A DNA stretch of 64,000 nucleotides from Escherichia coli 042 (lineage in GTDB: Bacteria; Pseudomonadota; Gammaproteobacteria; Enterobacterales; Enterobacteriaceae): assembly GCF_000027125.1 (NCBI RefSeq), contig NC_017626.1. One strand, 5' to 3'. Position numbers and translations under genes: made by a program. The notes under the pieces were generated by a model that searched no databases, had not been told where the DNA came from, and saw only the letters and a list, made by a program, of their open reading frames with translations. Of the stretch, positions 789-50,432 are shown one piece after another. Position 1 is the stretch's first letter, and each line of letters starts with the position of its first letter.

Positions 789-3700
789 TTAAGCCAGATG
801 CAGTGCTTCAAGACGACGAAGATCAAAGTCGTTTAATTCGTCGGTATAACTTTCGGTAATCGGTGCTGGCCAGTTGTTTGTCTCCAGGGCTTCGTTTATC
901 TGGCGTAGCGTCCGGCGATATTCCTGTCGACCAAGTTCCAGGAGTTCCTGCGAGGCTTCCACGACAGCCACCCAGTGATAGCCAGCATCTTTGTTGACGA
1001 AGATCCAGAAAAATTTTTCCAGGTTTGCCACATCGCAATACATTGCGGCGCTGAGGTGATAATCACGCTCAATAATTTCACGGTGCAGGCGATCTTTAAG
1101 TCGTTCCTGCCGCACATAACCGAGGCTGACTGACTTCACGTCGGCGCAAATGCTTTCGTATGGCAGCCGGATTTCGATATCAGGACGGACCCTGATTTCC
1201 AGCCCGGTTTCTTCATCAAACCCGAAATAGCTGATTTCAGATTTGCGATCCGGGTGGTTGAGTAGCCTTGCCGCATCAGTATTGTTTTGCAGTGCCGCGT
1301 GAATATTTTTTGCCTGTTCATACATATCCGGACTGATAAACGTTTTCCCGGCGTTTTCTTCTTGCTGGCGTTTTTGCCAGTCCTCCAGTGTCACCAGTTC
1401 CGGGCGAATTTTCCGTGCGATTTCGGTTAATTGCTCTTTCGTGCCACTGATGTTGTAAGGCAAAGATTTAGCACGTTCTTTTTTTGCCAGTTCTGGGTCT
1501 ACAGTTTCAATTTGATCCAGAAGTTGCTCCCGTGCTCCACTGGTTTTCAACAGAGGAGGGAGGCTTGCGTTGTATTCTTTAATACAGGCTTTCATTGCTG
1601 ATGCTGTGTGTTTTTCCCCCTCAGGGATACGCCGAAATTCCACCGGAAGCGAACCGTAAAGGATGCCTGTTTCTTCGGCCCCAGCACTTACAGACAGTGG
1701 CTGTATAAGAGTGCTGTTGTAGCTTTCGATCCACTCTTTCATCTGCTCTGGTGTCATCAGTGCTGGCAGACTGGCATTGTGTTTTTTAATGATGGCGATC
1801 AGTTCGTTAGAAGTAGTAACCACATATTCAGGAACCGGTACCGGAATGGCATATTCATCAGCGAATTTATCCGTTTCCAGAACATAGCTGTGAATGATCC
1901 TCCCACGCAGCAGTGCATCACTTTCCTCATTCGGAATAGTTCCGGCAATGTGCCGCCCGTGGTAATACATCAGGCTGATACGGGCATCCTTCAGCATCGT
2001 GCTGCTTATTCCGTTGGCGGAGTGATAAACCTCGTTCGGGAGGTTTTCATAGCGGCCTGGCTCGAAATATGACGGCCACATGATTTCAGTTGCTACAGGA
2101 GCTGACGCTTCACCAGTTTGATCACTGCAATCACGATGCGGATCGCTGCCAGCATTCTCATTGTGCGGATGTTCAGCGCCTTCCATTTCCACCGGATCTT
2201 TTTCCTTAGCTTCAACCTGATTCTCTTCATCGAATGTTTCCTGGTATGTTGCGTCGCCCATCACCGCGCCACAGTCAGGGCAGTTACTGCCGCCGGTCTG
2301 ACCGCAGGCGGCGCAGACTTTTTCCGGTTCCTGTTGCGCTTCTGGTTCATTTTGTCGCGAATTTTGGCCGTTTTGTTCCGATTTTCGGTCGTTCTGTTCC
2401 GTTTTTGGCTGATGCTGGTACACAGAATCGCGGGTCTGGATCCCCTTAACCCATTTCGGATCATTCGGGTCGCTAATCCCTTCAACAAATTCTCCGCGAT
2501 AGGCAGCCAGTAATTTGTCTGCATCAACAGAATTTACCTGTGACTGAGCATCCAGCGGCTGCGTGTCCTGATGATGTTCAGTTGCATCCGGTTCCACTGT
2601 TTCAGCCGTTGCCTGTTCATCTGCCATTGCGCCAGATGGTTGCGGTTTTTCTTCATCATTCTGTTTTCCCTCCTCTGTTACACGCTGCGGCATCGGGGCA
2701 GAGGAGCGACCGCAGGCAATATCCACGATTTCCGGATCAGGGTTGGCATGATCGGTTTCAGTCAGTACTTTGTTCAGATATTCTGTGACGTGCGCGGGGA
2801 TGACCTCGATCCCAATTGGTGCTTCTTTCACGGACGCAACCACGATGGCGCGAGAATAATCCAGCCCGCCAGGCATGGTGATGAATTTGTCGCGGAAAAC
2901 AGAAAAGGGCGGTTTATTTTCAGCGATAATTTCCTCAATGCGTTTAGCGTGTGCCGGATGAAGGTTATAGATGTCCACGTCCATTGAACGGGCCAGTACG
3001 CCAGTGGCTACGTCGCGCGCCAGTGACGTAAGATCGTGGACGAAACCTTCGCCGCGATCGGTGAGGTTCCCGCCGCCAGCATTAGCACCGGAAGCCGTGC
3101 GAGTGATGCGTGAAACACGATTACCCTTCATCCACTCTTTTGTCAGCAGTCCTCGATCGGTGTAGTCAGCGTTCAGGTATACTTCGAAAAAAGCAGTTAA
3201 CAGTCCCAAGTCTGAATTACCAGGATTAGGGAAAACTTTGTCAGTGTCACGAACCAGTTTGTGGAGATCGCGAATTTCCAGCGGGTCGAGCAGGCTGGTT
3301 TTGTGGGAAACAGCCAGGGCAGTAACAGCCGGTAGTTCTTCAGCCCGTGCAATGTGTAATGCCTGGAGTTCGCCGCGTGAAACGTGCGTTACCGGTTTTT
3401 CGCTGCCGTGTTGAGCAAGCCAACGAATGGGCAGTTCCTGGCCAGAAATTGGGAGTAGCATATTCTCCTCAATCTCAGTCATGTCTTCGCCGTTGACGTT
3501 GGTATTGCCTTGATAGTGAGCGTTGTCTGGTGCTGCTCCCGGTTTTAGTTCCCATGTCATGGAGTCTTTGCTGAGTTGATAGCGTTCACTCCAGGTAAAA
3601 TCGATCTCACCTTCAGCGGGCAGGTCATTAACGACAGGAAAATTCGTGGCAACAGCTTTAAAATAGCTGCTCAGTTTTTTACCTGACTTAACGATCTGGT

Positions 3701-3812
3701 AGTCCAGAGTGGCACAGGTCGATTCAAAATCGTCACTTGCCCACAGGACGACGTCAGGTTCACCGGATGATTTTTTCGCTTTCCGTAACAGGAAGAGTGG
3801 TTTTGTGCTCAT
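789..3812 (-). CDS. recE: Exonuclease VIII (RecE-like), 1007 aa
   Basis: Long ORF; C-terminal region has RecE-type nuclease-domain character (e.g. [10 protein letters not shown]) as I recall it; synteny with racC/ydaE/kilR. Longer than K-12 RecE (866 aa). Confidence 0.8.
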
Positions 3813-3913
3813 TGTTTTTTAACCTCAACTCAGATTAAAATTCGTTTTGTTCAGTGAATGATCTTGCCGGATACACACTGTTCATAGCCTGCGCCATACG
3901 CAGGCTATTTCTT

Positions 3914-4189
3914 TCAGATTTCACCTTTTAATTTCATTGCAATCAGAGTTGCCAGAAATCCGGCTTTTTTTTCTGCGGGCAGATTCTTTCCGATATGCAC
4001 TAGGCTCATTTTTTTGACACCTTCGTGAAGTGTTTTAACGTTGCCTGATGGACCGTCGATATCAACTACAGTGAATGGGGTTTCTTTATTTTCTGTTTTA
4101 ATCACGTAGCCAATACGCTTTCCTTCCAGATTAACTTCGTGAACAATGTCATCAGTAGTTACAACAGTGGCTTCATAACTGGTAATCAT
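3914..4189 (-). CDS. racC: Rac prophage protein RacC (91 aa from internal Met MITSYEA)
   Basis: ORF translation matches RacC as recalled; position between recE and ydaE. Confidence 0.8.
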   Translation of the reverse strand: MITSYEATVVTTDDIVHEVNLEGKRIGYVIKTENKETPFTVVDIDGPSGNVKTLHEGVKKMSLVHIGKNLPAEKKAGFLATLIAMKLKGEI

Positions 4190-4263
4190 GTTTTTCTTCT
4201 TAATTAAGGTTGAGCGAATCCCTGCCATTGCTGGCATAAATTCAGTTTCGCATAGTCAGTTAA

Positions 4264-4434
4264 TTAAAGTTCGTGTGCCATCTGGTCTTTTTCGGCACAT
4301 ATTTCGCTACAATATTTTTTCATTTCCGTCGTTGGGATAACTCCACGCATGAAATGAAGTGGTCTTTTAATGCTTTTGCTTTCTTTAACTTCTTTATCGC
4401 AAAGGTGGTAAGCACATTTTATTTTCTTAGTCAT
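4264..4434 (-). CDS. ydaE: Small zinc-binding protein YdaE (56 aa)
   Basis: Not in ORF track (<60 aa); hand translation [16 protein letters not shown]...YCSEICAEKDQMAHEL, GGAG RBS, 56 aa as in K-12 ydaE. Confidence 0.75.
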   Translation of the reverse strand: MTKKIKCAYHLCDKEVKESKSIKRPLHFMRGVIPTTEMKKYCSEICAEKDQMAHEL

Positions 4435-4655
4435 CACCATGACTCCGCCTTTACAGGTAAACCATCACGACCGAGGAAGACTTTAATCATGCAGTCAGTA
4501 ATGCATGTTTTTGTGGTCAGGTTACGAATATAAAGCTTTCGCTTTTTAATATTGTTTGCCGAGGCAATATATGTCCGGCCGTTATGAAGAACATAATCAC
4601 CAGGAGTCACACACTGACGAGGTATTTCATCAGTTCCGAAGTGATGAGCAATCAT
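4434..4655 (-). CDS. kilR: Cell-division inhibitor KilR (73 aa)
   Basis: ORF translation [21 protein letters not shown]...; Rac synteny. Confidence 0.8.
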
Positions 4656-5085
4656 AATTATCTCCATTTTCACAAATGAACTTTGTTGATGCGGTGCCTG
4701 GTGCCTCCAGGTGACGTTAACCAGTTAACAATTAACGCCGGATAATCCACCCATAACACTGATGCTTTTAACTGTTCCGCGTGCGCTTAGCCGCATTCAC
4801 CGCATCACAAAATTCACTTTAAAAAGGGCGGACATCAGCCGAACTTCAAGAAAAAACTGATGCCGCCAAGACTACACACAGCAATGTCGTTATTTACAAC
4901 CGGAGGCGCACTCCCACCATTTAAATTTAACAGACAAGACCGACTCTTTATGGATATCGGAAATGCGCCTTCGTGTTGCGCCCAGTTTTATTTCACCACC
5001 TCCGGGCTTCGGTGGTCTCGGCTATACCCCTACAGCGAGAGCTTGTGTTAACATTTCAATACCCTTACAGTTGAGAGTTATTGAT

Positions 5086-5574
5086 ATGTTGGATGTATTT
5101 ACTCCATTGTTGAAACTTTTTGCTAACGAGCCACTCGAAAGACTTATGTATACGATTATCATTTTTGGTCTCACTCTCTGGCTGATACCGAAAGAGTTTA
5201 CTGTCGCATTCAATGCTTATACTGAAATACCTTGGCTCTTTCAGATTATCGTTTTTGCCTTTTCTTTCGTGGTCGCCATTTCCTTCTCAAGATTGCGAGC
5301 ACATATTCAAAAGCATTTTTCATTACTACCAGAGCAACGAGTATTGCTTCGTTTATCTGAGAAAGAAATCGCTGTATTTAAAGATTTCCTTAAAACAGGA
5401 AATCTTATTATCACTTCTCCTTGCCGTAACCCGGTTATGAAAAAATTAGAACGGAAGGGCATCATTCAACATCAGAGTGATAGCGCAAACTGTTCTTATT
5501 ATCTCGTCACCGAAAAATACTCCCATTTTATGAAGTTATTCTGGAACAGCAGGAGTAGACGTTTTAATCGTTAG
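5086..5574 (+). CDS. sieB: Superinfection exclusion protein B (162 aa)
   Basis: Translation MLDVFTPLLKLFANEPLE... with hydrophobic N-terminal segments; divergent from kilR. Confidence 0.85.
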   Translation: MLDVFTPLLKLFANEPLERLMYTIIIFGLTLWLIPKEFTVAFNAYTEIPWLFQIIVFAFSFVVAISFSRLRAHIQKHFSLLPEQRVLLRLSEKEIAVFKDFLKTGNLIITSPCRNPVMKKLERKGIIQHQSDSANCSYYLVTEKYSHFMKLFWNSRSRRFNR

Positions 5575-5726
5575 CTTACTGTGTGCTTCTCCAACCATCG
5601 GCGCGCACCAGTTTCGGTTTTAAATGTTTTGCTTTTTGTATACGTCATCGCGGTGAACGTACCGTCCTGGTTGGGAAACACGCCACACACTATGGATTCG
5701 TTGTTGCCGAGGTCGATTTTTTGCAT
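5571..5726 (-). CDS. ydaF: Rac prophage small protein YdaF (51 aa)
   Basis: Hand translation MQKIDLGNNESIVCGVFPNQDG...; GAGGG RBS; size matches ydaF. Confidence 0.7.
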   Translation of the reverse strand: MQKIDLGNNESIVCGVFPNQDGTFTAMTYTKSKTFKTETGARRWLEKHTVS

Positions 5727-5737
5727 TTTGGGAACCC

Positions 5738-5872
5738 TCACATCTTGTTGTTACGGATAGAGGCTTCTGCCTGCCAGAGATCCCAGTCGTTGCTGCGTAG
5801 AGCCTGTACAGCCTGGCTGTAAGTGATGCCGCAACAATCCATCAAATACTGAACTACTTCGTAATGCACCAT
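5738..5872 (-). CDS. ydaG: Rac prophage small protein YdaG (44 aa)
   Basis: Hand translation MVHYEVVQYLMDCCGITYSQAVQALRSNDWDLWQAEASIRNNKM; size and position match ydaG. Confidence 0.65.
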   Translation of the reverse strand: MVHYEVVQYLMDCCGITYSQAVQALRSNDWDLWQAEASIRNNKM

Positions 5873-6043
5873 CTTATCTCTCCCCTTAACGCCGGGTGGC
5901 GGAACTAACTGCTGCACTGCAAAATTTGAATCCCGCCGTCATGTTCATACGCCTCGGGCTGGCTACTTAACCCCTGACCACTGCCTGGTAACTCGAAGTA
6001 TTGCCCTGCGTTCTGTGGGGCGGGGTGGGTTGGTAGGTATATG

Positions 6044-6085
6044 ATGTACTTTGTGTTCATTGTTGTAAAGTACTTTAAGTACATT
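6044..6085. promoter_or_regulatory. Candidate left operator: inverted ATGTACT/AGTACAT repeats
   Basis: atgtact at 6044-6050 and agtacat at 6078-6084, plus aagtac direct repeat; same heptamer recurs twice between racR and ydaS. Confidence 0.35.
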
Positions 6086-6159
6086 TTGTGTGTAAAAAAA
6101 TGAGATGGGATAAAGTGAAGCACAAACCCGGAGGGGGACGCTACCGGATTTATGCTGGT

Positions 6160-6579
6160 TTAAGAGGCTTTTTGTTTTTTCTTTCGTGCTAACTCTTCGT
6201 AAATTGCATTGTACTTCTGTTTTTTCTCCTCAAGAGTTTTTAAAAGTTCATCTGTCTCACTGTCAGGGAGCTCGTCCAGAAGGTCAATGATGATTTTTTG
6301 TCTTGGATTTAACTCCTGATAGAAACGTACCTGTCCACTTTCTTCTGTATCCTCTCCCAAAAGATAGGTTGGTGTTGTTCCAATGAGTGTTGCTAATTCC
6401 CTTAATTTCTCTCGGCGAGGAATTGTTTCGCCATTAAACCATTTGCTAACCGCTTTTGGTGTTAATTTCATTCGACGGGCAATTTCTGCCTGCCTTCCAT
6501 GTTGTTCATAACCAGCGTTTTCACAGGCTAGCGCAAGCCTACTGGCGAACTCTTTACGCGCTTTATCTTCATGAACCAT
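6160..6579 (-). CDS. racR: Prophage repressor, HTH XRE family (RacR-like), 139 aa
   Basis: HTH motif (QAEIARRMKLTPKAVSKW); divergent from ydaS/ydaT as in Rac. Confidence 0.75.
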   Translation of the reverse strand: MVHEDKARKEFASRLALACENAGYEQHGRQAEIARRMKLTPKAVSKWFNGETIPRREKLRELATLIGTTPTYLLGEDTEESGQVRFYQELNPRQKIIIDLLDELPDSETDELLKTLEEKKQKYNAIYEELARKKKQKAS

Positions 6580-6603
6580 AAGTTCAATGATATTCGCTCT
6601 TGA

Positions 6604-6634
6604 ATGTACTGTCAGTTCTGTTATAGCATGTACT
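6604..6634. promoter_or_regulatory. Candidate right operator/divergent promoter region (ATGTACT x2)
   Basis: atgtact at 6604-6610 and 6628-6634 in the 80-bp racR-ydaS intergenic region. Confidence 0.35.
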
Positions 6635-6658
6635 CAAAGTTCACATTGTGAGGGTGAT

Positions 6659-6913
6659 ATGAACCAGAAAACACTTGAAGATGTAATCAAAACTGTTCGC
6701 GTTTCTGTTGTGGCCGACGTTTGTGGTGTCAGCCAAAGAGCAATCTACAAATGGATGGATAACGGAAAATTGCCTCGCACAGAATATACCGGCGAAACAA
6801 ATTACGCTGAAAAAATCGCTCATGCATCAAACGGATTATTTTCTGCCGATGCAATTTTAACTATTGGCAGAAATAAAACTACTACGAAAAAGCTGATGGG
6901 AGTTGATTCATGA
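6659..6913 (+). CDS. ydaS: Cro-like HTH protein YdaS
   Basis: Translation MNQKTLEDVIKTVRVSVVADVCGVSQRAIYKW; position right of repressor. Start uncertain. Confidence 0.7.
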   Translation: MNQKTLEDVIKTVRVSVVADVCGVSQRAIYKWMDNGKLPRTEYTGETNYAEKIAHASNGLFSADAILTIGRNKTTTKKLMGVDS

Positions 6914-7332
6914 AAATCAAGCATGAGCACATCGAATCAGTGTTGTTAGCCCTGGCTGCTGAAAAAGGGCAGGCATGGGTAGCCAATGCCATTACTGAAG
7001 AATATCTGCGCCAGGGGGGCGGCGAATTGCCTCTGGTTCCAGGCAAGGACTGGAACAATCAGCAGAATATCTATCACCGTTGGTTGAAAGGTGAAACGAA
7101 AACGCAAAGAGAAAAAATTCAGAAGCTGATCCCAGCAATTCTGGCAATCCTTCCGCGCGAGCTGCGTCACCGACTCTGCATCTTCGATACCTTGGAACGC
7201 CGTGCATTACTGGCGGCGCAGGAAGCGTTAAGTACGGCAATTGATGCGCATGATGATGCTGTCCAGGCCGTTTACCGGAAAGCGCATTTCAGCGGTGGCG
7301 GGTCTTCCGACGATTCTGTCATTGTTCATTAA
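6910..7332 (+). CDS. ydaT: YdaT (140 aa), toxic Rac protein repressed by RacR
   Basis: 140-aa ORF overlapping ydaS stop (ATGA); matches ydaT size and synteny. Confidence 0.8.
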   Translation: MKIKHEHIESVLLALAAEKGQAWVANAITEEYLRQGGGELPLVPGKDWNNQQNIYHRWLKGETKTQREKIQKLIPAILAILPRELRHRLCIFDTLERRALLAAQEALSTAIDAHDDAVQAVYRKAHFSGGGSSDDSVIVH

Positions 7333-7344
7333 GCAAAAGTTTTC

Positions 7345-8202
7345 ATGCTGTTTGTGCTTATTCTAAGCAACCGGACAGCATCATACGGGGCAATTATGGC
7401 CGCATTACCATACATGCAACTGTACATAGCTGATTACTTGGCTGACACCATGCATTTGTCAGCAGAGGAGCACGGTGCGTATTTGTTGCTGATGTTCAAT
7501 TACTGGCAAACAGGAAAGCCAATACCCAAAAACAGGCTGGCAAAAATTGCCCGTCTGACTAACGAGCGATGGGCTGATGTTGAACCATCCTTGCGGGAGT
7601 TTTTTTGCGATAACGGCGAGGAATGGGTGCATCTTCGGATTGAGGAAGATCTGGCATCAGTCAGGGAAAAATTAACCAAAAAATCAGCCGCAGGAAAAGC
7701 ATCTGTTCAGGCCAGAAGAAGCAGAAAGGAAGCAGATGTTCAAACAAAACAAGAGAGAAATTTAACAGGTGTTCAAACAGATGTTGAAGTGGTGTTTGAA
7801 CATGATGCCAACACAAAGGCAACTAATAAAGATACAGATAAAGATCTAAAAACAGATCCCCCCCTAAATCCCCCCCGGGGGAATCGAGGTGTCAAAAAGT
7901 TTGACCCTCTGGATATTGCTTTGCCGAACTGGATTTCTGTCTCGCTTTGGCGTGAGTGGGTTGAATTTCGCCAGGCATTGCGTAAACCGATTCGAACGGA
8001 GCAGGGCGCTAACGGGGCGATACGGGAGCTGGAAAAATTCCGCCAGCAGGGTTTTTCACCTGAGCAGGTGATTCGACACAGCATCGCCAATGAATACCAA
8101 GGCTTGTTCGCGCCAAAAGGTGTTCTACCTGAGACGTTACTCCGACAGGTTAACACCGTCTCGTTACCGGATAGTGCGATCCCGCCAGGCTTCAGGGGGT
8201 AA
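7345..8202 (+). CDS. ydaU: Replication initiation protein O-like (YdaU), 285 aa
   Basis: 285-aa ORF, same length as K-12 YdaU; precedes DnaC-like gene. Confidence 0.75.
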   Translation: MLFVLILSNRTASYGAIMAALPYMQLYIADYLADTMHLSAEEHGAYLLLMFNYWQTGKPIPKNRLAKIARLTNERWADVEPSLREFFCDNGEEWVHLRIEEDLASVREKLTKKSAAGKASVQARRSRKEADVQTKQERNLTGVQTDVEVVFEHDANTKATNKDTDKDLKTDPPLNPPRGNRGVKKFDPLDIALPNWISVSLWREWVEFRQALRKPIRTEQGANGAIRELEKFRQQGFSPEQVIRHSIANEYQGLFAPKGVLPETLLRQVNTVSLPDSAIPPGFRG

Positions 8203-8208
8203 CTGACC

Positions 8209-8955
8209 ATGAAAAATATTGCGGCAGGCGGCATTCTTGAACGTATCCGCAGACTGGCCCCGCCACATGTAACCGCCCCATTCAAAACGGTAGCGGAGTG
8301 GCGCGAGTGGCAACTTTCCGAAGGCCAGAAACGTTGTGAGGAGATCAACCGTCAGAATCGTCAGTTGCGGGTGGAAAAAATTCTGAATCGCTCTGGCATC
8401 CAGCCATTGCACCGCAAATGCTCGTTTGCGAATTACCAGGTGCAGAACGACGGTCAGCGATACGCGTTGAACCAGGCGAAATCTATCGCTGATGAACTGA
8501 TGACCGGGTGTACAAATTTTGCGTTCAGCGGAAAACCTGGTACCGGAAAAAACCATCTGGCGGCGGCTATCGGGAATCGCCTGCTGAAAGATGGCCAGAC
8601 AGTGATTGTGGTTACCGTGGCTGATGTCATGAGTGCTCTACACGCCAGCTATGACGACGGGCAATCAGGCGAAAAATTTTTGCGGGAACTGTGCCAAGTG
8701 GATCTGCTGGTTCTTGATGAAATTGGCATTCAGCGCGAGACAAAAAACGAGCAGGTGGTGCTGCACCAGATTGTTGATCGCCGGACAGCGTCGATGCGCA
8801 GCGTGGGGATGCTGACAAACCTGAACTATGAGGCCATGAAAACATTGCTCGGCGAGCGGATTATGGATCGCATGACCATGAACGGCGGGCGATGGGTGAA
8901 TTTTAACTGGGAGAGCTGGCGTCCGAATGTCGTCCAGCCAGGAATTGCGAAGTGA
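8209..8955 (+). CDS. ydaV: DnaC-like helicase loader (YdaV), 248 aa
   Basis: Walker [14 protein letters not shown], Walker B LLVLDEIG. Confidence 0.85.
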
Positions 8956-8977
8956 TTTTTACCGGGAGGAAATTTTA

Positions 8978-9739
8978 ATGGAAACCGTTTTTGATGCACT
9001 GAAAGCAATGGGAAAAGCCACGTCGGTAGAACTGGCTGCGCGACTTGATATCAGTCGTGAAGAAGTGCTGAACGAGCTGTGGGAACTTAAAAAGGCTGGC
9101 TTCGTTGATAAAAGCGTATACACCTGGCGTGTGGCTGATAACAACGTTCAGCAGGAACAGCCAGAGCAGGCAGAACTGCCGGAAGAAACCACCACGGCAA
9201 CAGTAGCGAAAATCTCAGAGTGCGATTTAACCGCGACGATTGAACAACGTGGCCCACAAACGGCGGATGAACTGGCTACGTTTTTCGGCACCACATCACG
9301 CAAAGTGGCTTCAACGCTGGCAATGGCAATCAGCAAAGGCCGTCTGATTCGCGTTAATCAGAACGGTAAATTTCGTTACTGCATGCCGGGCGATGATTTA
9401 CCAGCAGAGCCGAAAGCTGCATCGGTAACGGAAACTGATGGTAAAGCCTTTCCTCAACCAGCAGGTGTTGCGTTACCGGGACAGGAAGCTGCAACACAGG
9501 AAGATATTAAAACAGAAACTGTGGCGGACATTGTGCAGTCGTTGCCATCGTTTACCGAAACGCGAGCGGATGACCTCGTTCTGCCATCGCTGCATATGGC
9601 AAACCGCGAACTGCGTCGGGCGAAAAATCATGTCCAGAAGTGGGAACGTGTCTGCGCCGCGCTGCGGGAGCTGAACAAGCACCGGGATATTGTTCGACAG
9701 ATTACTGATTCTTCTCGCTGTGTTGCATCGGAAAAGTGA
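8978..9739 (+). CDS. Phage hypothetical protein (YdaW-like), 253 aa
   Basis: ORF with strong RBS GGGAGGA before ATG at 8978; function unknown. Confidence 0.55.
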
Positions 9740-10334: not shown

Positions 10335-11021
10335 ATGACCCCAATAAAAATATTTATGACTATTGCTGATTTCAAACGGCCTAAATTGGAGCTCCCAAAC
10401 GGGGCAAACAAACTACTACTGCACTCTTGCTGTGCTCCATGTTCCGGTGAAGTGATGGAGGCGCTTCAGGCCTCGGGAATCGACTATACCATCTTTTTCT
10501 ACAACCCGAACATTCATCCTCAGAAAGAGTATTTAATTCGTAAGGATGAGAATATTCGCTTTGCTGAACAACACGGCGTGCCATTTATTGATGCTGATTA
10601 CGACACAGACAACTGGTTTGAACGTGCCAAAGGAATGGAATGGGAGCCCGAGAGGGGGATCCGTTGTACCATGTGTTTTGACATGCGTTTTGAGCGGACA
10701 GCGCTGTACGCTGCTGAAAATGGTTTCAGTGTGATCAGCAGTTCACTGGGCATTTCACGCTGGAAAAATATGCAGCAGGTTAACGACTGTGGGCGGCGAG
10801 CCGTCGCGCATTATCCGGGCATGGTGTACTGGGATTATAACTGGCGCAAGCAGGGCGGCTCGTCCCGCATGATTGAAATCAGCAAGCGCGAAAAATTCTA
10901 TCAGCAGGAATATTGTGGCTGTGTGTATTCTCTGCGCGATACCAATCTACACCGCAAATCTCAGGGACGCCCTCTTATCAAAATTGGTCAACTCCACTAC
11001 GGTAAAGAAGAGAAGGAGTGA
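10335..11021 (+). CDS. DUF208/QueH-like Fe-S protein (epoxyqueuosine reductase family)
   Basis: N-terminal [21 protein letters not shown] and C-terminal YCGCVYSL motifs typical of QueH. Start codon uncertain (10335 or 10356). Confidence 0.65.
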
Positions 11022-11201
11022 TTTTATGGAGCACCTTTCTTATTGATTTCATATTGGCGAGGTAGCGGGAGTTAAGTAAAATTGCTGCGGGTGCTTGAGG
11101 CTATCTGCCTCAGGCATGAACACCAAAAGGCAGATAGAGAAAAGCCCCAGTTAACATTACGCGTCCTGCAAGACGCTTAACATTAATCTGAGGCTCAATC
11201 T

Positions 11202-11414
11202 ATGCTGAACACATGTAGGTTAGCCTCTTACGTGCCGAAAGGCAAGGAGAAGCAGGCTATGAAGCAGCAAAAGGCGATGTTAATCGCCCTGATCGTCATC
11301 TGTTTAACCGTCATAGTGACGGCACTGGTAACGAGGAAAGACCTCTGCGAGGTACGAATCCGAACCGGGCAGACGGAGGTCGCTGTCTTCACAGCTTACG
11401 AACCTGAGGAGTAA
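11202..11414 (+). CDS. mok: mok-like overlapping reading frame (translational coupling to hok)
   Basis: 70-aa frame that contains the hok ORF in-frame, as in hok/mok loci. Confidence 0.5.
   Translation: MLNTCRLASYVPKGKEKQAMKQQKAMLIALIVICLTVIVTALVTRKDLCEVRIRTGQTEVAVFTAYEPEE
11259..11414 (+). CDS. hok: Hok/Gef family membrane toxin (51 aa)
   Basis: MKQQKAMLIALIVICLTVIVTALVTRKDLCEVRIRTGQTEVAVFTAYEPEE: Hok-family TM helix plus conserved C..E..R. Confidence 0.85.
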   Translation: MKQQKAMLIALIVICLTVIVTALVTRKDLCEVRIRTGQTEVAVFTAYEPEE

Positions 11415-13665: not shown

Positions 13666-13741
<76 letters not shown>

Positions 13742-13744
13742 TAT

Positions 13745-13819
<75 letters not shown>

Positions 13820-44323: not shown

Positions 44324-45181
44324 CTAATTGGGTGATGACAAATCCTGTGTATGGGTGTTTCCCTTTGTGCGTGCGTTGATGCTGGTAACGGTGAACGTCA
44401 TGATGAACACAACCGCGAATAAGACGACAATCGTCGGAGCTGGTGCACTGTCGATAAAAAAGGACAACCAGACACCAGTCATTGACACTATTACCGATAT
44501 GCCAATCGCCAGTAGGAGCGCAATATGAAAGCGTTGTGTCAGGAGTACCGCAATGGCGCCAGGCGCAATGAGCAGAGAAATGGAGAGAATGATACCTACC
44601 GCTTTCAGCGTCGCCACAATGGTCAGAGAGACCATGCACAGCAGCCCATAATGCAGACATCTCGTATGCAAACCGCTTACCTGCGCCTGTTGATAATCAA
44701 AGCTGAACAGCAAAAAATCCCGCCATTTTACGCTAATAACAAGTGTAACCAACCCGGCAATAATCACCGTCTGGATTATATCGCCGATGGTTACCCCGAG
44801 CATGTCGCCGAAAAGAATATGGTCAAGATGTACGTCTGGTTTGACTGCAATATACAAGATCAGACCTGCGGCAAACATGCCAGAAAAAACAATCCCCATC
44901 ACTGTATCTTGCTTGATTCGGCTGTTGTCTTTCAGGTATCCCGTCGCCACCGCGCAGAATACTCCGGCGACGAATGCCCCTGTAGCCAGAGGTAACCCCA
45001 GAATCCAGGCAAGCACGATGCCAGGAAAAACCGCATGACTCATCGCGTCACCCATCAGTGCCCAACCTTTCAGGACCAGAAAGACCGACAGCAGCGCACA
45101 GGGTATGGAAACTACCAGTGAAATCAGCAGTGCGTGACTCATAAAGGTGAACTGCAGTGGCTCCAGTAATAATGCCATCAT
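44324..45181 (-). CDS. sitD: Mn/Fe ABC transporter permease SitD
   Basis: Polytopic permease; operon order sitABCD. Confidence 0.9.
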   Translation of the reverse strand: MMALLLEPLQFTFMSHALLISLVVSIPCALLSVFLVLKGWALMGDAMSHAVFPGIVLAWILGLPLATGAFVAGVFCAVATGYLKDNSRIKQDTVMGIVFSGMFAAGLILYIAVKPDVHLDHILFGDMLGVTIGDIIQTVIIAGLVTLVISVKWRDFLLFSFDYQQAQVSGLHTRCLHYGLLCMVSLTIVATLKAVGIILSISLLIAPGAIAVLLTQRFHIALLLAIGISVIVSMTGVWLSFFIDSAPAPTIVVLFAVVFIMTFTVTSINARTKGNTHTQDLSSPN

Positions 45182-46035
45182 GAGCGATCCTCCAGCGCTT
45201 TATGCGCACGCCGACGATTTGCCAAAAGCCCATGGGTGGGCGCAAATACAAATGCTAAAAGAAACAGCAGTGTCTGCGCCACCACGATGATTCCACCTGT
45301 CGCGCCGTCCAGAAAGTAACTGACCCACGCGCCGAGGAAACTGGTTACACTGCCAATAGTTACAGCAATTATGAGCAGGCGGGGAAAATGATCGGTTAAC
45401 AACCATGCTGTTGCACCGGGAGTCACCACCAGACAGATCACCAGAAAGGCACCAACCGTTTGCAGCGCCGCAACGGTCGAAACCGACAGCAGGGTGAAGA
45501 AGAGGATTTTTAATCTGCCCGGATGCAATCCAATAGCACGAGCGTGATTCTCGTCGAAAAAGGTCACCATAAGATCTTTCCATTTGAAAAAAAGCACGAT
45601 GATCGAGAGAATGCCAATGATAGTGAGTTGCAGGATATCCGCCGGATCGATTGCCAGAATATTGCCCAGGACGATGGTCTGAATGTTCACGGATGTCGGG
45701 TTCAATGACACCATAAACAGCCCCAGGCCAAAAAAGGAGGAGAAGATCAGGCCGATGATGGCATCTTCTTTTAAGCGAGTGCGTTGGTTAAGAAACAGCA
45801 TGCTGCCCGCTGCCAGTCCGCCGGAAAAGAAGGCTCCCAGAGAAAACGGAAGCCCCAGCATATATGCCCCCGCAACACCCGGGACAATAGAGTGCGACAG
45901 CGCATCGCCAATCAGCGACCAGCCTTTTAGCATCAGATAGCATGACAGGAAAGCGCAGAGACCGCCGACCATCGCCGAGACCCACATCGCATTGAGCATA
46001 TATTCATAGCTGAAGGGTTCCAGTAGCACGTTCAT
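45178..46035 (-). CDS. sitC: Mn/Fe ABC transporter permease SitC
   Basis: Polytopic permease paralogous to SitD. Confidence 0.9.
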
Positions 46036-46859
46036 CTTGCTTCCCCCTGCACCGCTGACGGTCGATGTGCCACAAAAGGGTGTTCATCGTCAGTAATAAT
46101 GCTTTCTTCCGAGCCGTTAAGTGTGACATGGCGCAGTACGCCGCTAAAAGCCAGCTCCAGGTTCTCGGCTGTAAAAGTGGTGTCTGTCGGCCCGCTTGCC
46201 AGGACGGTGCCTTTGACCATGACCGTATAATCGCAAAATGTCGTGACTGAGCCGAGATTGTGCGTTGAGACAAGCATCGTCTTGCCTTCCGCGCGTAACT
46301 CCCTCAACAGGCTGATGATTTTCGCTTCGGTTTTCACATCAACGCCGGTAAAAGGTTCATCCAGCAGGATCACATCACCCTGCTGTGCAATCGCTCTCGC
46401 CAGAAAGACGCGTTTCTTTTGTCCACCGGAAAGCTCGCCGATTTGTCGATGGCGAAAATCCACCATATCGACACGTTCCAGCGCATCGGTGACAATCTGA
46501 CGATCCCTCTTTTTGGCTATACGCAACATACCCATGTGCCCATAGCGGCCCATCATCACCACATCTTCCACTAGTACAGGAAATGACCAGTCAACCTCTT
46601 CTGACTGAGGGACGTAGGCAACCAGGTTTTTCTGTAGCGCCTGTCGCGTGGGAATACCCAGAACAGATATCTTTCCGCTGGTCAGACGGACAAATCCCAT
46701 AATCGCTTTAAACAACGTCGATTTTCCGGAACCGTTTACCCCAACCAGAGCGGCAATAGATCCACTTGGTACTGTGAAGGATGCATCGCGCAGTGCTGTG
46801 TGCCCGTTACGCCAGGTGACAGTAACATCATTAACGACAATGCCCGCAGATTGCATCAT
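46032..46859 (-). CDS. sitB: Mn/Fe ABC transporter ATP-binding protein SitB
   Basis: Walker [13 protein letters not shown] signature LSGGQKKR, Walker B ILLDEP. Confidence 0.9.
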
Positions 46860-47773
46860 TATTTCTCCCTTTTCCCGGCTTTAATTCCCTGTACCAGCGT
46901 ACTGGTAGTAACCTTCAGAAGGTCGATATACGTAGGTACCGGGCCGTTTTCTGTGCTCAGGGAATCGACATAGAGTACACCGCCGTAGTGCGCGCCGGTT
47001 TCACGCGCAACCTGACGCGCTGGTTTATCGGAAATCGTACTCTCGCTAAAGACTGCCGGGATATGATTTTTCTTCACCATATCAACAACCTTACGTACCT
47101 GCTGCGGCGTGCCTTGTTGATCGGCATTAATCGGCCACAGATAAAGCTCTTTTAGCCCCAAATCGCGTGCGAGATAAGAAAAAGCCCCTTCACTGGTGAC
47201 CATCCATCGCTGATTCTCAGGGAGTTCAGCAATCTGCTTACGCAGGGGGGCAAGGGTTTGGGTAATCTTGGCTTTATAAGTATCGGCATTACGTTGGTAG
47301 GTTTGTGCATTTGCCGGATCGTATTTTATCAACGCATCACGAATATTATCGACATAAATCAGAGCATTATCTGGCGACATCCAGGCATGGGGGTTAGGTT
47401 TGCCCTCATAGGGTCCTTCGGTGATCCCTACTGGCGTCACACCCGAAGAGACAATTACTTCTGGAACCCCATTGAGATGTTGGTAAAAGCGTTGGAACCA
47501 CAATTCCAGATTCATACCATTGGCGAGAATCAGTTGTGCCCCCTGCGCACGTTTAATATCTCCAGGGGTAGGCTGATACTCATGAATTTCTGCACCAGGC
47601 TTGGTTATGGATGAGACTTCTGCAGCATCTCCAGCCACGTTTTTGGCCATATCCGCGATGATGGTAAATGTTGTAATGACCTTGAATTTTTCAGTTGCAC
47701 TTGCCTGAAATGCGATCGAGCAGGTGAGGGCGAGGCACCCCAAGAGCATGGTTACTTTTTTTATTGAGTGCAT
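46859..47773 (-). CDS. sitA: Periplasmic metal-binding protein SitA
   Basis: Signal peptide; cluster-9 substrate-binding protein family. Confidence 0.9.
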
Positions 47774-48933: not shown

Positions 48934-50067
48934 TTAGAACTGATAAACCAGACCTAAAGCGACAATATCATCGGTAGAGATGCCGTTGGCAGCGTAGAAG
49001 CTGTCATCTTCATCCAACAGGTTGATTTTATAGTCAACATAGGTGGACATGTTTTTATTGAAATAGTAAGTCGCGCCAACATCGGCGTATTTAACCAGAT
49101 CTTTATCATCAACACCTGCCGGGTTGTCTGCACCACCGGCAGCGTGCAGGTCACGGCCTTTAGACATCAGGAAAGAGACTGCCGGACGCAGACCAAAATC
49201 AAACTGGTACTGTGCAGTAACTTCAAAGTTCTGGGTTTTGTTTGCAACAGCATAATCGCTGTCGCCAAACGGGGTCATATTACGCGTTTCTGAATACATG
49301 GTTGCCAGGTAAATATTGTTAGCATCGTATTTTAGCCCAGCAGTCCACGCGTCTGCTTTATCACCACCCGCCGCAGTATGGTTAACCTGGTCATTGGTGC
49401 GGTCAGAAGAGGTGTATGCCGCACCAGCGCTAAAGCCCATGCCTAAATCATATGTTGTGGAAAGACCCCAGCCGTCACCGTTTTCATGGCGAACATCACG
49501 TCCGTTGTTGGTGCCTTCCTGACCATTACTGGCACCTTCGTTGTTACCTTGATACTGCACCGCGAAGTTCAGACCATTTACCAGACCGAAGAAATCAGTA
49601 TTACGATAAGTCGCGACGCCATTGGCACGACCAGTCATAAAGTTGTCTGCATTGGTATAAGAGTCACCGCCAAATTCAGGCAGCATATCGGTCCAGCCTT
49701 CGATGTCGTACATTACGCCATAATTACGTCCGTAATCGAAAGAACCGTAATCTGCAAATTTCAATCCGGCAAATGCCAGACGGGTCCATGACTGGTTTTT
49801 TGAGGATTCAGTGTTGTTTGCCTGAATATTGTATTCCCATTGACCGTAGCCAGTGAGTTGATCGTTAATTTGCGTTTCGCCTTTAAAACCCAGACGCGCA
49901 TAGCTCTGGTCGCCATCTTTCGCTGAATTATCAGAAAAATAATGCAGGCCATCAACTTTGCCATACAGATCTAATTTGTTGCCGTCTTTATTATAAACTT
50001 CGGCTGCATGTGCAGCACCTGCGGCGAGCAGGGCAGGAATTAAAAGTGCCAGTACTTTGCTTTTCAT
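48934..50067 (-). CDS. ompN: Outer membrane porin OmpN
   Basis: Signal peptide; OmpC-family porin ending in F. Confidence 0.9.
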
Positions 50068-50294
50068 TGAATAAATCCTTTAGTTATTTTATTTGCCTTT
50101 TATCCCCATTTCGGGGAGTGAAAACATCCTAAAGGAGATGTTCAGTTAGCCGATAAATATCATTTGTTACGCCTTAAGTAAAACCTTAATCAAATAATTC
50201 TTCTGAAATGATAATAAGTCTGGTGAATGTATTGGAGATAATACATACAAAATAAAAATTATACTTTTAATTTGCTATACGTTATTCTGCGCGG

Positions 50295-50403
50295 GTTATA
50301 TGCCTTTATTGTCACAGATTTTATTTTCTGTTGGGCCATTGCATTGCCACTGATTTTCCAACATATAAAAAGACAAGCCCGAACAGTCGTTCGGGCTTTT
50401 TTT
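50295..50403 (+). ncRNA. micC: MicC small regulatory RNA
   Basis: Sequence GTTATATGCCTTTATTGTCACAG... ending in gcccgaac...gttcgggc + T-run; between ompN and ydbK. Confidence 0.85.
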
Positions 50404-50432
50404 TAGAATTGGATAATTCTTATCCAGAGCAT

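Follow-up and report, generated by a model that had tools for sequence, protein, structure and literature searches.

The stretch from 6036 to 7332 of the window, as we call the 64,000 nucleotides of Escherichia coli 042 that were analyzed, is with a probability of about 0.8 the immunity (lysis/lysogeny) region of a full-size Rac-like lambdoid prophage, in which a cassette has been swapped in to give a heteroimmune CI/Cro/CII-like switch. Three open reading frames lie here, at 6160-6579 on the minus strand (139 aa) and at 6659-6913 (84 aa) and 6910-7332 (140 aa) on the plus strand, and by sequence all three products are DNA-binding regulators of the HTH type. An earlier note on this DNA had described the region as a conserved racR-ydaS-ydaT module. 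The layout that it gave, a repressor gene pointing away from an operon of two genes, the second of them ydaT, within a Rac-type prophage, agrees with both the reading frames and the synteny. The claimed conservation does not hold, because non-orthologous genes with operators of their own stand in place of two of the three. That repressor and cro were exchanged as a single block is the usual mosaicism of phages rather than the mark of a variant addiction module.

The exchanged cassette

The cassette and the genes discussed here are the following.

6036..6903, no strand: swapped immunity cassette comprising PL/OL, the repressor gene, OR/PRM/PR and cro, delimited by blastn against K-12 Rac
6160..6579, minus strand: short CI-type repressor, 139 aa, with an HK022-CI-like HTH, a DicA-like helical C-terminus and no S24 cleavage domain
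6659..6913, plus strand: Cro-type regulator, 84 aa; ribosome binding site GAGGG at 6650-6654; stop codon overlapping the ydaT start (ATGA)
6910..7332, plus strand: ydaT, CII-analogue transcription factor (Pfam PF06254; PHROG 163, CII-like activator)

When compared with K-12 Rac by blastn, the window showed 95.7% identity at 2521-6035 and 96.5% identity at 6904-9427, but 6036-6903 gave no match to the 1059-bp racR-ydaS segment in whose place it stands. As both flanks run colinear with K-12 Rac at about 96% DNA identity and 6036-6903 does not, the K-12-type repressor/Cro pair has been replaced by recombination together with its operators. The two prophages share their backbone and the gene order of a divergent repressor, a Cro-like gene and ydaT, whereas the repressors and Cro-like proteins are non-orthologous and the operators and intergenic regions unrelated. 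The intergenic region measures 79 bp in the window and 123 bp in K-12, and cro overlaps ydaT where K-12 has a gap of 22 bp. The synteny on both sides, which puts the repressor divergent from a Cro-like gene and upstream of ydaT, is thus a positional analogy only. These boundaries, like the homologies, the operator layout and the prevalence given below, were seen directly in the analysis.

Of 5426 complete E. coli genomes, 1048 contain the cassette, and in 617 genomes of this set it is coupled to a K-12-type ydaT. It is also part of the phage Tritos (LF82 prophage 3; OV696610), which shows 96.4% DNA identity over window positions 5881-6933, a range that takes in the whole cassette and the YdaT-box. 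The flanks of Tritos differ: its ydaT allele is 33% identical, its replication module is another one and its left arm carries dicB/DicF instead of kilR. The repressor of the window is 100% identical to Tritos CI. Tritos is a plaque-forming phage of strain LF82, and expression of its CI in the lysogen was 24-fold over background (PMC9928086).

K-12 Rac is cryptic and decay is frequent among Rac-like elements (PMC5700373), so the cassette might be regarded as an inactive relic whose reading frames are intact through chance or recent decay and which controls nothing in strain 042. We consider this very unlikely, given that more than 1000 genomes carry the cassette intact at 95-100% identity and that its five predicted operators and its promoter hexamers are kept as far out as a Salmonella relative with a repressor of 65% identity. 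Moreover, the identical repressor is expressed in the lysogen of a viable phage, and the prophage of the window retains replication, lysis, terminase, capsid and tail genes that are colinear with those of its relatives.

The repressor and the Cro-type protein

The two ends of the repressor resemble different proteins. Its DNA-binding domain matches HK022 CI (47% identity over residues 4-102, E = 6e-32), and HTH_3 is its only Pfam domain. Peptidase_S24 (PF00717), on which HK022 CI scores 69.5 bits, gave no match in the 139-aa protein. BLASTP against DicA returned 29% identity over 112 residues including the C-terminus (E = 5e-15), and the C-terminal LP(D/E)SE...EEL motif of DicA is also present. 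The NCBI DicA subfamily model NF007257 was matched at model positions 20-132 of 135 with 56.8 bits, which is under the cutoff of 101, and the DNA-binding domain is nearer to that of HK022 CI than to that of DicA. The nearest long relatives (235-240 aa, S24-bearing) match the repressor in the N-terminal domain alone, and the alignment shows their S24 part swapped for the DicA-like tail. HK022 CI itself has 235 aa and carries the S24 self-cleavage domain. Full-length homologues in Salmonella have 138-151 aa; an identification of these with the Gifsy repressors GfoR and GfhR was considered and set aside, as the phage collection returned no Gifsy record.

The AF2 model of the repressor is all-helical (pLDDT 83.7), with a helical hairpin that closes the protein at residue 139. 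A Foldseek search of this model against the PDB returned generic HTH domains only, none of them at E<=0.001, and a comparison of the sequence with solved structures found only the N-terminal domain of P22 C2 (E = 0.006) and nothing beyond the Xre HTH. A SinR-like antirepressor interface was considered and rejected, as the full-length fits to SinR (1b0n) and to an arbitrium-phage repressor (9iaq) were too weak (rmsd 6-8 Å). Because it lacks a LexA-like cleavage domain and ends in a DicA-like helical tail, the repressor is by its sequence a member of the short, non-cleavable class. This class, with DicA of Qin and GfoR/GfhR/GtgR of the Gifsy prophages, comprises antirepressor-controlled proteins of similar size (about 135-150 aa) that have an N-terminal Xre-type HTH and, like the window repressor, no Ala-Gly/S24 cleavage module.

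The 84-aa protein showed 62% identity to HK022 Cro (E = 1e-34). It falls into PHROG 35 (1.5e-14), a broad family that also holds K-12 YdaS (1.3e-27). Only 18 residues could be aligned to K-12 YdaS, 6 of them identical, and the Pfam model YdaS_toxin (PF15943) gave no match at E<=0.01; against its gathering threshold of 30 bits, K-12 YdaS reaches 107.7 and HK022 Cro 17.6 bits. The protein is unrelated to DicC. The RefSeq annotation of strain 3-72 contains the same 255-nt gene. A longer reading frame of 108 aa, which begins at the mechanical start 6587, was discarded as cro because it would start inside the PRM -10 and ahead of the inferred PR; the ribosome binding site in front of the ATG at 6659, the RefSeq annotation and the alignment with HK022 favor 84 aa as well.

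The earlier note had taken the 139-aa protein for a variant RacR, of 139 instead of 158 aa, and had proposed an alignment to the K-12 protein. The length is correct, and so is the claim that the repressor differs from K-12 RacR, but it is a different protein and not a shortened RacR: BLASTP aligned no more than 33 HTH residues, 12 of them identical, and the NCBIfam RacR equivalog NF049929 (curated cutoff 200 bits; K-12 RacR scores 244.6 bits) gave no match at E<=0.001. Among the gene names ydaT can be kept, as the protein is identical to that of K-12 in 139 of 140 residues, while racR and ydaS have to be dropped because the family models missed both.

The same evidence bears on the idea that a diverged RacR orthologue represses the toxins YdaS and YdaT and that the trio forms an addiction module stabilizing the prophage. 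In its favor, gene order and Rac context are as in K-12, and YdaT hardly differs from its K-12 counterpart. In K-12, moreover, racR can be deleted only if ydaS and the intergenic region go with it, and ectopic YdaS or YdaT is toxic (PMC5700373; PMC5700377). We nevertheless hold this idea to be extremely unlikely, since the repressor and the leading gene of the operon fail every RacR/YdaS test used and are homologous to HK022 CI and Cro. The toxin framing is also outdated. Published work now reads YdaS and YdaT as analogues of Cro and CII (PMC5917428, PMC8630535, PMC11879457), the literature argues against a toxin-antitoxin role for them (PMC5917428, PMC8630535), and an earlier study, as far as its citation in PMC5917428 conveys, saw no toxin-antitoxin behavior. 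Because kilR, lysis genes and a complete set of virion genes are also present in the prophage, lethality upon loss of the repressor would not single out ydaST. In the published view of lambdoid immunity the repressor is 'essential' merely in the way that any lysogen's repressor is. That the module helps to maintain the prophage was nonetheless a sound suggestion, for the repressor almost certainly keeps the prophage state.

Classical SOS induction through RecA-stimulated self-cleavage, as in HK022 and lambda, would fit the HK022-like DNA-binding domain and operators and the S24 domain of HK022 CI, but its chance is close to negligible because the repressor has no Peptidase_S24 match, stops at residue 139 in a modeled helical hairpin, carries a DicA-like tail where its long relatives have S24, belongs with short Gifsy, DicA and RacR-type repressors that are documented as non-cleaved (PMC3121763, PMC10448788) and is shared with a phage, Tritos, whose induction by ciprofloxacin was not reported. 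In that experiment the only LF82 prophages with strong induction by ciprofloxacin were two others, Gally and Cyrano, and trimethoprim cut the yield of Tritos 3.4-fold (PMC9928086).

Predicted operators and promoters

A consensus scan and alignment with the annotated HK022 sequence (GenBank X16093) placed the following elements in the cassette.

6041..6069, minus strand: PL-like leftward promoter, -35 TTTACA (6069-6064), -10 CATCAT (6046-6041), from the consensus scan
6045..6059, no strand: predicted OL operator, TGTACTTTGTGTTCA, exact TGWAC-N5-GTWCA, aligned with an annotated HK022 oL site
6069..6083, no strand: predicted OL operator, AGTACTTTAAGTACA, 24 bp from the first OL site
6572..6586, no strand: predicted OR3-like operator, TGAACCATAAGTTCA, exact match to the pattern, overlapping the repressor start codon (6577-6579)
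6587..6615, minus strand: PRM-like promoter for the repressor, -35 CTGACA (6615-6610), -10 TATCAT (6592-6587), scan 10/12
6600..6627, plus strand: PR-like promoter for cro-ydaT, -35 TTGAAT (6600-6605), -10 TATAGC (6622-6627) or TAGCAT (6624-6629)
6605..6619, no strand: predicted OR2-like operator, TGTACTGTCAGTTCT, within the PR spacer and covering the PRM -35
6629..6643, no strand: predicted OR1-like operator, TGTACTCAAAGTTCA, immediately downstream of the PR -10

Across the 64 kb the pattern TGWAC-N5-GTWCA has three exact matches; together with two one-mismatch matches they make up the sites at 6045, 6069, 6572, 6605 and 6629. The stricter pattern ATGTACTNNNNGTWC has 7 matches where 0.97 are expected, a number reached by 0 of 100 shuffles. 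The 15-bp consensus is that of HK022, and the start-to-start spacings (33/24 in OR, 24 in OL) equal those of the oR and oL sites annotated in X16093. One of the annotated oR sites of HK022, which likewise covers the start of cI, is identical to the OR3-like site in sequence and position. The distal operator that HK022 has downstream of cro is without counterpart in the window. The layout recurs in Tritos, in two metagenome loci and in the Salmonella prophage, and the spacing of 24 bp in OL is common to the window, HK022, Tritos and the loci L005 (the Salmonella relative) and L006. Across relatives the half-sites do not change, in contrast to the 5 bp at the center. The operator repeats of CP-933P, a prophage of E. 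coli O157:H7 (consensus GTTTAGTAA), differ from those of the window.

The promoters likewise sit relative to the operators as pR and pL do in HK022. PL stands to the two OL sites as annotated for pL in X16093, and its -35 is invariant across a five-way alignment. PR was located by alignment with the annotated HK022 pR; its -10 is weak and below the threshold of the promoter scan. The -10 of PRM ends 7 nt upstream of the repressor ATG, an arrangement kept in the alignment of homologues, and the transcript start that we infer from it would yield a leaderless or near-leaderless repressor mRNA. A 72-aa reading frame at 5905-6123 on the minus strand runs across PL and OL and is unlikely to be a gene.

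The recognition-helix segment of the repressor, TPKA(V/I)SKWFNGE, shows V/I as its sole variation across 12 homologues. This near-identity, together with the common half-sites, suggests the immunity specificity of HK022. We expect the prophage to be heteroimmune to K-12 Rac and possibly homoimmune to, and thus cross-immune with, HK022-type phages.

YdaT, its box and the proposed switch

Two further elements mark the right end of the cassette.

6903..6920, no strand: YdaT-box, TTGATTCATGAAAATCAA, a perfect inverted repeat with the ydaT ATG within its spacer
6904..6933, no strand: conserved 30-nt joint, made up of the right part of the YdaT-box and the first 8 ydaT codons

The YdaT of the window scores 44.8 bits on PF06254 (cutoff 21) and keeps H56, R57 and W58 (YHRW at residues 55-58); H56 and R57, with W58, are DNA-binding residues (PMC11879457). 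K-12 YdaT footprints its box ATGATT...AATCAA and activates racR transcription 29-fold (PMC11879457). The box lies over the ydaT start in both prophages, as a perfect palindrome (TTGATT...AATCAA) in the window in contrast to K-12. TTGATT-N6-AATCAA has a single exact match in the 64 kb, and this match agrees exactly with the consensus described for CP-933P (PMC9986795). In CP-933P (paaR2-paaA2-parE2 / ydaS-ydaT), PaaR2, YdaS and YdaT act as CI, Cro and CII (PMC8630535), a logic that the window shares, although the YdaT of CP-933P is only about 30% identical to that of Rac (PMC11879457). CP-933P has a toxin-antitoxin pair behind its repressor, whereas none lies behind the repressor of the window. 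A HigB-like pair is found behind the repressor of L005. HK022 differs in having a lambda-type cII with its own pE where the window has cro followed by ydaT and the YdaT-box.

In the 30-nt joint, K-12, the window, L006 and Tritos agree in 28 of 30 columns; the flanks change partners, and megablast matches break at 6904 or 6933. As judged from these alignments, cro types and ydaT types are re-assorted at 6904-6933, and the right joint of the cassette is within the YdaT-box. On the minus strand of 6640-6935 a search for a YdaT-dependent leftward (PRE-like) promoter within cro gave weak -10/-35 candidates only; neither of the -10 elements TATATT (6788-6783) and TAAAAT (6859-6854) was convincing, and both were set aside. 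In K-12 the YdaT-dependent leftward promoter sits inside ydaS, a gene that is absent from the window.

We infer binding, promoter activity and induction behavior of the cassette from the homology to HK022 and from motif statistics, and propose the following switch. Repressor dimers would bind OR1 and OR2 (6629-6643, 6605-6619) and the two OL sites (6045-6083) and so shut PR, which would serve cro, ydaT and the replication genes, as well as PL, which would serve the ydaG/ydaF-kilR-recET side. The repressor would be made from the PRM-like promoter, with a transcript start at or next to the ATG, and would regulate itself through OR3 (6572-6586), while Cro would compete with it for the same operators. 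YdaT made from PR may bind the YdaT-box at its own start codon and thereby increase leftward transcription of the repressor, like lambda CII at PRE. As a LexA-like cleavage domain is missing from the repressor, we expect induction to need no RecA cleavage and to proceed via an antirepressor or by spontaneous switching. Within the 64-kb window we found no Rem homologue (tblastn with Qin Rem) and no LexA box (CTGT-N8-ACAG), and the annotated near-identical prophages list no dinI/antirepressor operon. The repressor may have an unrelated or trans-acting antirepressor.

Beyond the annotation, the operator map, the immunity predictions and the YdaT-box, the locus is textbook lambdoid mosaicism. It corrects an error of annotation by position, as some 600 to 1000 complete E. 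coli genomes have genes other than racR and ydaS beside ydaT. Results on the essentiality of K-12 RacR, on its operators and on C-protein cross-talk should not be carried over to strains that bear the cassette. For these strains we offer a concrete predicted map of the operators and promoters of a common and unstudied immunity type. Tentatively, and as a possibility that we rate well below even odds, the cassette could define an uncharacterized immunity type, present in about one fifth of E. coli genomes, that combines the operator specificity of HK022 with a DicA-like tail serving oligomerization or as the target of an antirepressor, the 30-nt block being a recombination linker. If so, such prophages would exclude phages of HK022 immunity, and their induction signal or antirepressor would bypass RecA-stimulated cleavage of the repressor. 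The block of YdaT-box and ydaT start would then be a functionally constrained linker across which Rac-like, Tritos-like and other lambdoid phages trade immunity cassettes, and the exchange would keep a common CII-analogue circuit. The YdaT-box has been retained, and is even more symmetric, after replacement of the repressor that it was thought to serve, and thus provides a natural test of whether the CII-like role of YdaT is independent of the identity of the repressor.

Gene content and exchange of the racR-ydaS segment

The region 6160-7332 had been described in an earlier note as a racR-ydaS-ydaT addiction-like module with a variant RacR of 139 aa. Its three-ORF layout and the length of 139 aa both match ORFs of the window.

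6160-6579, minus strand: repressor ORF, 139 aa
6659-6913, plus strand: cro-type ORF, 84 aa from the ATG at 6659, with GAGGG at 6650-6654 ahead of it
6910-7332, plus strand: ydaT, 140 aa

A start of the middle ORF at 6587, as given by the mechanical ORF, was rejected because it would fall upstream of the promoter. We compared the proteins directly with those of K-12 Rac (NC_000913, 1410000-1436000). The third protein was identical to K-12 YdaT at 139 of 140 residues and scored 44.8 bits against Pfam PF06254, which upholds the ydaT assignment. The names RacR and YdaS could not be kept. Alignment of the repressor to K-12 RacR was limited to 33 HTH residues (12 identical), and the NCBI RacR equivalog model, which K-12 RacR matches with 244.6 bits, gave no match. 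The 84-aa protein aligned to K-12 YdaS over 18 residues and did not match Pfam YdaS_toxin (107.7 bits for K-12 YdaS).

DNA identity to K-12 Rac was 95.7% over 2521-6035 and 96.5% over 6904-9427. Between these stretches, 868 bp of unrelated sequence (6036-6903) stand in place of the 1059-bp racR-ydaS segment of K-12. We read the region, from sequence comparison, as a cassette replacement and not as divergence of racR. By tblastn against phage genomes, the repressor matched at 100% identity the protein annotated as CI in Escherichia phage Tritos (prophage 3 of strain LF82) and, over residues 4-102, was 47% identical to HK022 CI; identity of the 84-aa protein to HK022 Cro was 62% (E 1e-34). The best-supported reading of the immunity region is a lambda-like CI/Cro/CII-analogue switch with an exchanged repressor, Cro and operator set. 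The swapped block begins on the left at 6036, no more than 10 bp from the inferred PL start, so that what was exchanged would be the classical 'imm' region (PL/OL, cI, OR, cro). Tritos keeps the left flank of the cassette to 5881, 155 bp left of the K-12 breakpoint at 6035; the PL transcript's untranslated leader and the beginning of a ydaG-like ORF fall within 5881-6035. In HK022, a putative nutL lies ~100 bp downstream of pL.

Predicted operators, promoter-like elements and repressor of the cassette

Binding, promoter and induction assignments for the cassette were inferred from homology. A repeat search found a motif at 6044, 6604 and 6628, and the pattern ATGTACTNNNNGTWC had 7 matches (overlapping matches and both strands counted) against 0.97 expected by chance, a number reached in no shuffle. 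The HK022 record X16093 annotates 15-bp repressor sites, three oR and two oL, whose sequences give the consensus TGWAC-N5-GTWCA. When the window was scanned with this consensus, all three exact and two one-mismatch matches fell in the cassette.

6045-6059: predicted OL, first site
6069-6083: predicted OL, second site, 24 bp from the first
6572-6586: predicted OR3, over the repressor ATG and identical to an HK022 oR site
6605-6619: predicted OR2, 33 bp from OR3
6629-6643: predicted OR1, 24 bp from OR2

The operator spacings of HK022 are exactly equal to these. The 3+2 layout was also found in Tritos, in two metagenome loci (repressor 89% identical) and in a Salmonella prophage (65% identical). 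Five-way alignments showed invariant half-sites and a variable central 5 bp, the pattern that would be expected of HTH-dimer sites. Promoter-like elements fit the HK022 annotation.

-35 at 6069-6064 and -10 at 6046-6041, minus strand: PL-like promoter, interleaved with the OL sites
-35 at 6615-6610 and -10 at 6592-6587, minus strand: PRM-like promoter, from the promoter scan
6600-6605 and 6622-6627, plus strand: predicted PR, placed by alignment, weak and under the promoter-scan threshold

The PRM-like -10 ends 7 nt ahead of the repressor ATG, which would imply a leaderless or near-leaderless repressor message.

HTH was the only Pfam domain of the repressor, whereas HK022 CI carries Peptidase_S24 in addition. 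Identity to the nearest long relatives (235-240 aa, with S24) was 62-72% and confined to the N-terminal domain; full-length relatives, from E. coli and Salmonella, were all short (138-151 aa). In the AlphaFold model (pLDDT 83.7), residues 1-74 form a five-helix HTH domain and residues 92-138 a helical hairpin, joined by a lower-confidence linker; a fold search with it gained nothing firm. Across 112 residues, the LP(D/E)SE...EEL motif of the C-terminus among them, the repressor was 29% identical to K-12 DicA; it scored 56.8 bits, under the cutoff, with the NCBI DicA subfamily model. By sequence, the tail is DicA-like. Short non-cleavable lambdoid repressors have been described in Gifsy prophages and as DicA and RacR (PMC3121763, PMC10448788). 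Domain content, short relatives and the DicA-like tail suggest that the repressor joins this class, at least loosely, carrying HK022-like DNA specificity.

Tritos forms plaques and expresses CI in the lysogen; strong ciprofloxacin induction was reported for two other LF82 prophages only, the paper reports no induction for Tritos, and trimethoprim reduced Tritos yield (PMC9928086). This behavior agrees with a non-cleavable repressor class. No antirepressor was found: the 64-kb window gave neither a Rem homologue nor a LexA box, and annotated relative prophages contained no dinI-type operon.

A Salmonella repressor homologue (P0015) recalls, at the place of window 6580-6624 in the repressor frame, the Gifsy-3 GfhR* form (PMC3121763); the corresponding window codon is ATA, so no extension of the window repressor is possible. 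In a Salmonella prophage locus (L005 4553-5220, GCA_028156025.1), the gene of the short repressor is separated from the OL pair by two genes, one HigB-toxin-like and one of HTH type, in the same 'moron' slot as that of lambda rexAB and CP-933P paaA2-parE2.

Prophage context and cargo

A full-size relative of Rac, the prophage carries recE, kilR, sieB and ydaF on its left side. Its right side holds the replication genes ydaU/ydaV, lysis genes, trkG, and genes for terminase, capsid, tail and tail fibres; the attR side (ttcC/uspF) lies at ~48.1 kb. A 377-aa ORF (48934-50067) matches the K-12 ompN side and the MicC sRNA (50292-50412, plus strand; Rfam RF00121, 127.5 bits) lies just beyond in host DNA, so that the window exits the prophage (attR ~48133) into the uspF-ompN region.

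The right end of the prophage (44324-47773, minus strand) has a run of four ORFs (304, 275, 285 and 285 aa) that resemble, as cargo, a metal ABC importer of the sitABCD type: the first encodes a periplasmic binding protein of the ZnuA family (PF01297, 289.9 bits) and the second an ABC ATPase. In strain 3-72, the related prophage has cdtABC at the equivalent end. A gene for the epoxyqueuosine reductase QueH (10335-11021, PF02677) comes directly after the replication genes and is followed by a hok/sok-type locus (11089-11264; Rfam sok, 119.6 bits). This cargo (10335-11264) is unlike that of relatives; strain 3-72 has iteAS anti-phage genes there. Two tRNA genes (13666-13816, plus strand; Rfam tRNA, 73.8 and 65.6 bits) lie in the late region, where related annotated prophages have tRNA-Thr and tRNA-Gly.

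The recombination module likewise appears mosaic. The recE ORF (789-3812, minus strand) has 1007 aa versus 866 aa in K-12. Identity to K-12 drops to 82% in the middle of the ORF (2094-2535), and 1-795 had no match in the best related genomes. The 203-aa sieB ORF (4963-5574, plus strand; superinfection exclusion B, PF14163) matches Pfam from residue 62, and the true start is probably internal to the listed ORF; in strain K56-43, sieB is annotated as frameshifted.

The YdaT-box joint and the immunity type

In K-12, the footprint of YdaT covers an inverted repeat, ATGATTCATGAAAATCAA, that spans the ydaT start codon, and from there YdaT activates the leftward racR promoter (PMC11879457). The CP-933P homologue recognizes TTGATT-N6-AATCAA (PMC9986795). 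The predicted YdaT-box of the window is a perfect palindrome, TTGATTCATGAAAATCAA, at 6903-6920, the sole exact match in 64 kb; no YdaT-dependent leftward promoter could be placed within the new cro gene. Aligning the window, K-12, Tritos and a further locus (L006) gave a 30-nt block (6904-6933) with 28 of 30 columns invariant. Left of it the window equals Tritos and L006 and K-12 differs; right of it the window equals K-12 and the other two differ, the Tritos gene downstream being a YdaT family member just 33% identical. Megablast with a joint probe (6690-7130) found the full cro/ydaT junction in 617 genomes; other genomes match up to 6933 only or from 6904 only, and a few match the box alone. 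The block alignment and these breakpoints point to the YdaT-box and ydaT start as the joint where immunity cassettes and ydaT alleles re-assort. Among 5426 complete E. coli genomes, 1048 carry this cassette, 1089 the K-12 racR-ydaS block and 1480 a K-12-type ydaT.

The label 'addiction module' finds no support here; YdaS and YdaT are treated as regulators in the current literature (PMC5917428, PMC8630535, PMC11879457). Any lysogen is harmed by loss of its repressor, and the harm would be greater here, given the presence of kilR, lysis genes and a set of virion genes. Since operators and proteins share nothing with those of K-12 Rac, the prophage should be heteroimmune to it. The cassette and HK022 have in common the recognition-helix segment TPKA(V/I)SKWFNGE and the operator half-sites, and thus may share a specificity. 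That lambdoid phages swap immunity regions in mosaic fashion is classical knowledge, with the imm434 and imm21 hybrids of lambda as the textbook case, and the Tritos record (OV696610) already annotates the same sequence as 'CI repressor' and 'Cro'. What is modestly new is the recognition of a common 'Rac' immunity type as an HK022/DicA hybrid, an explicit map of its predicted operators and the YdaT-box as a recombination joint.
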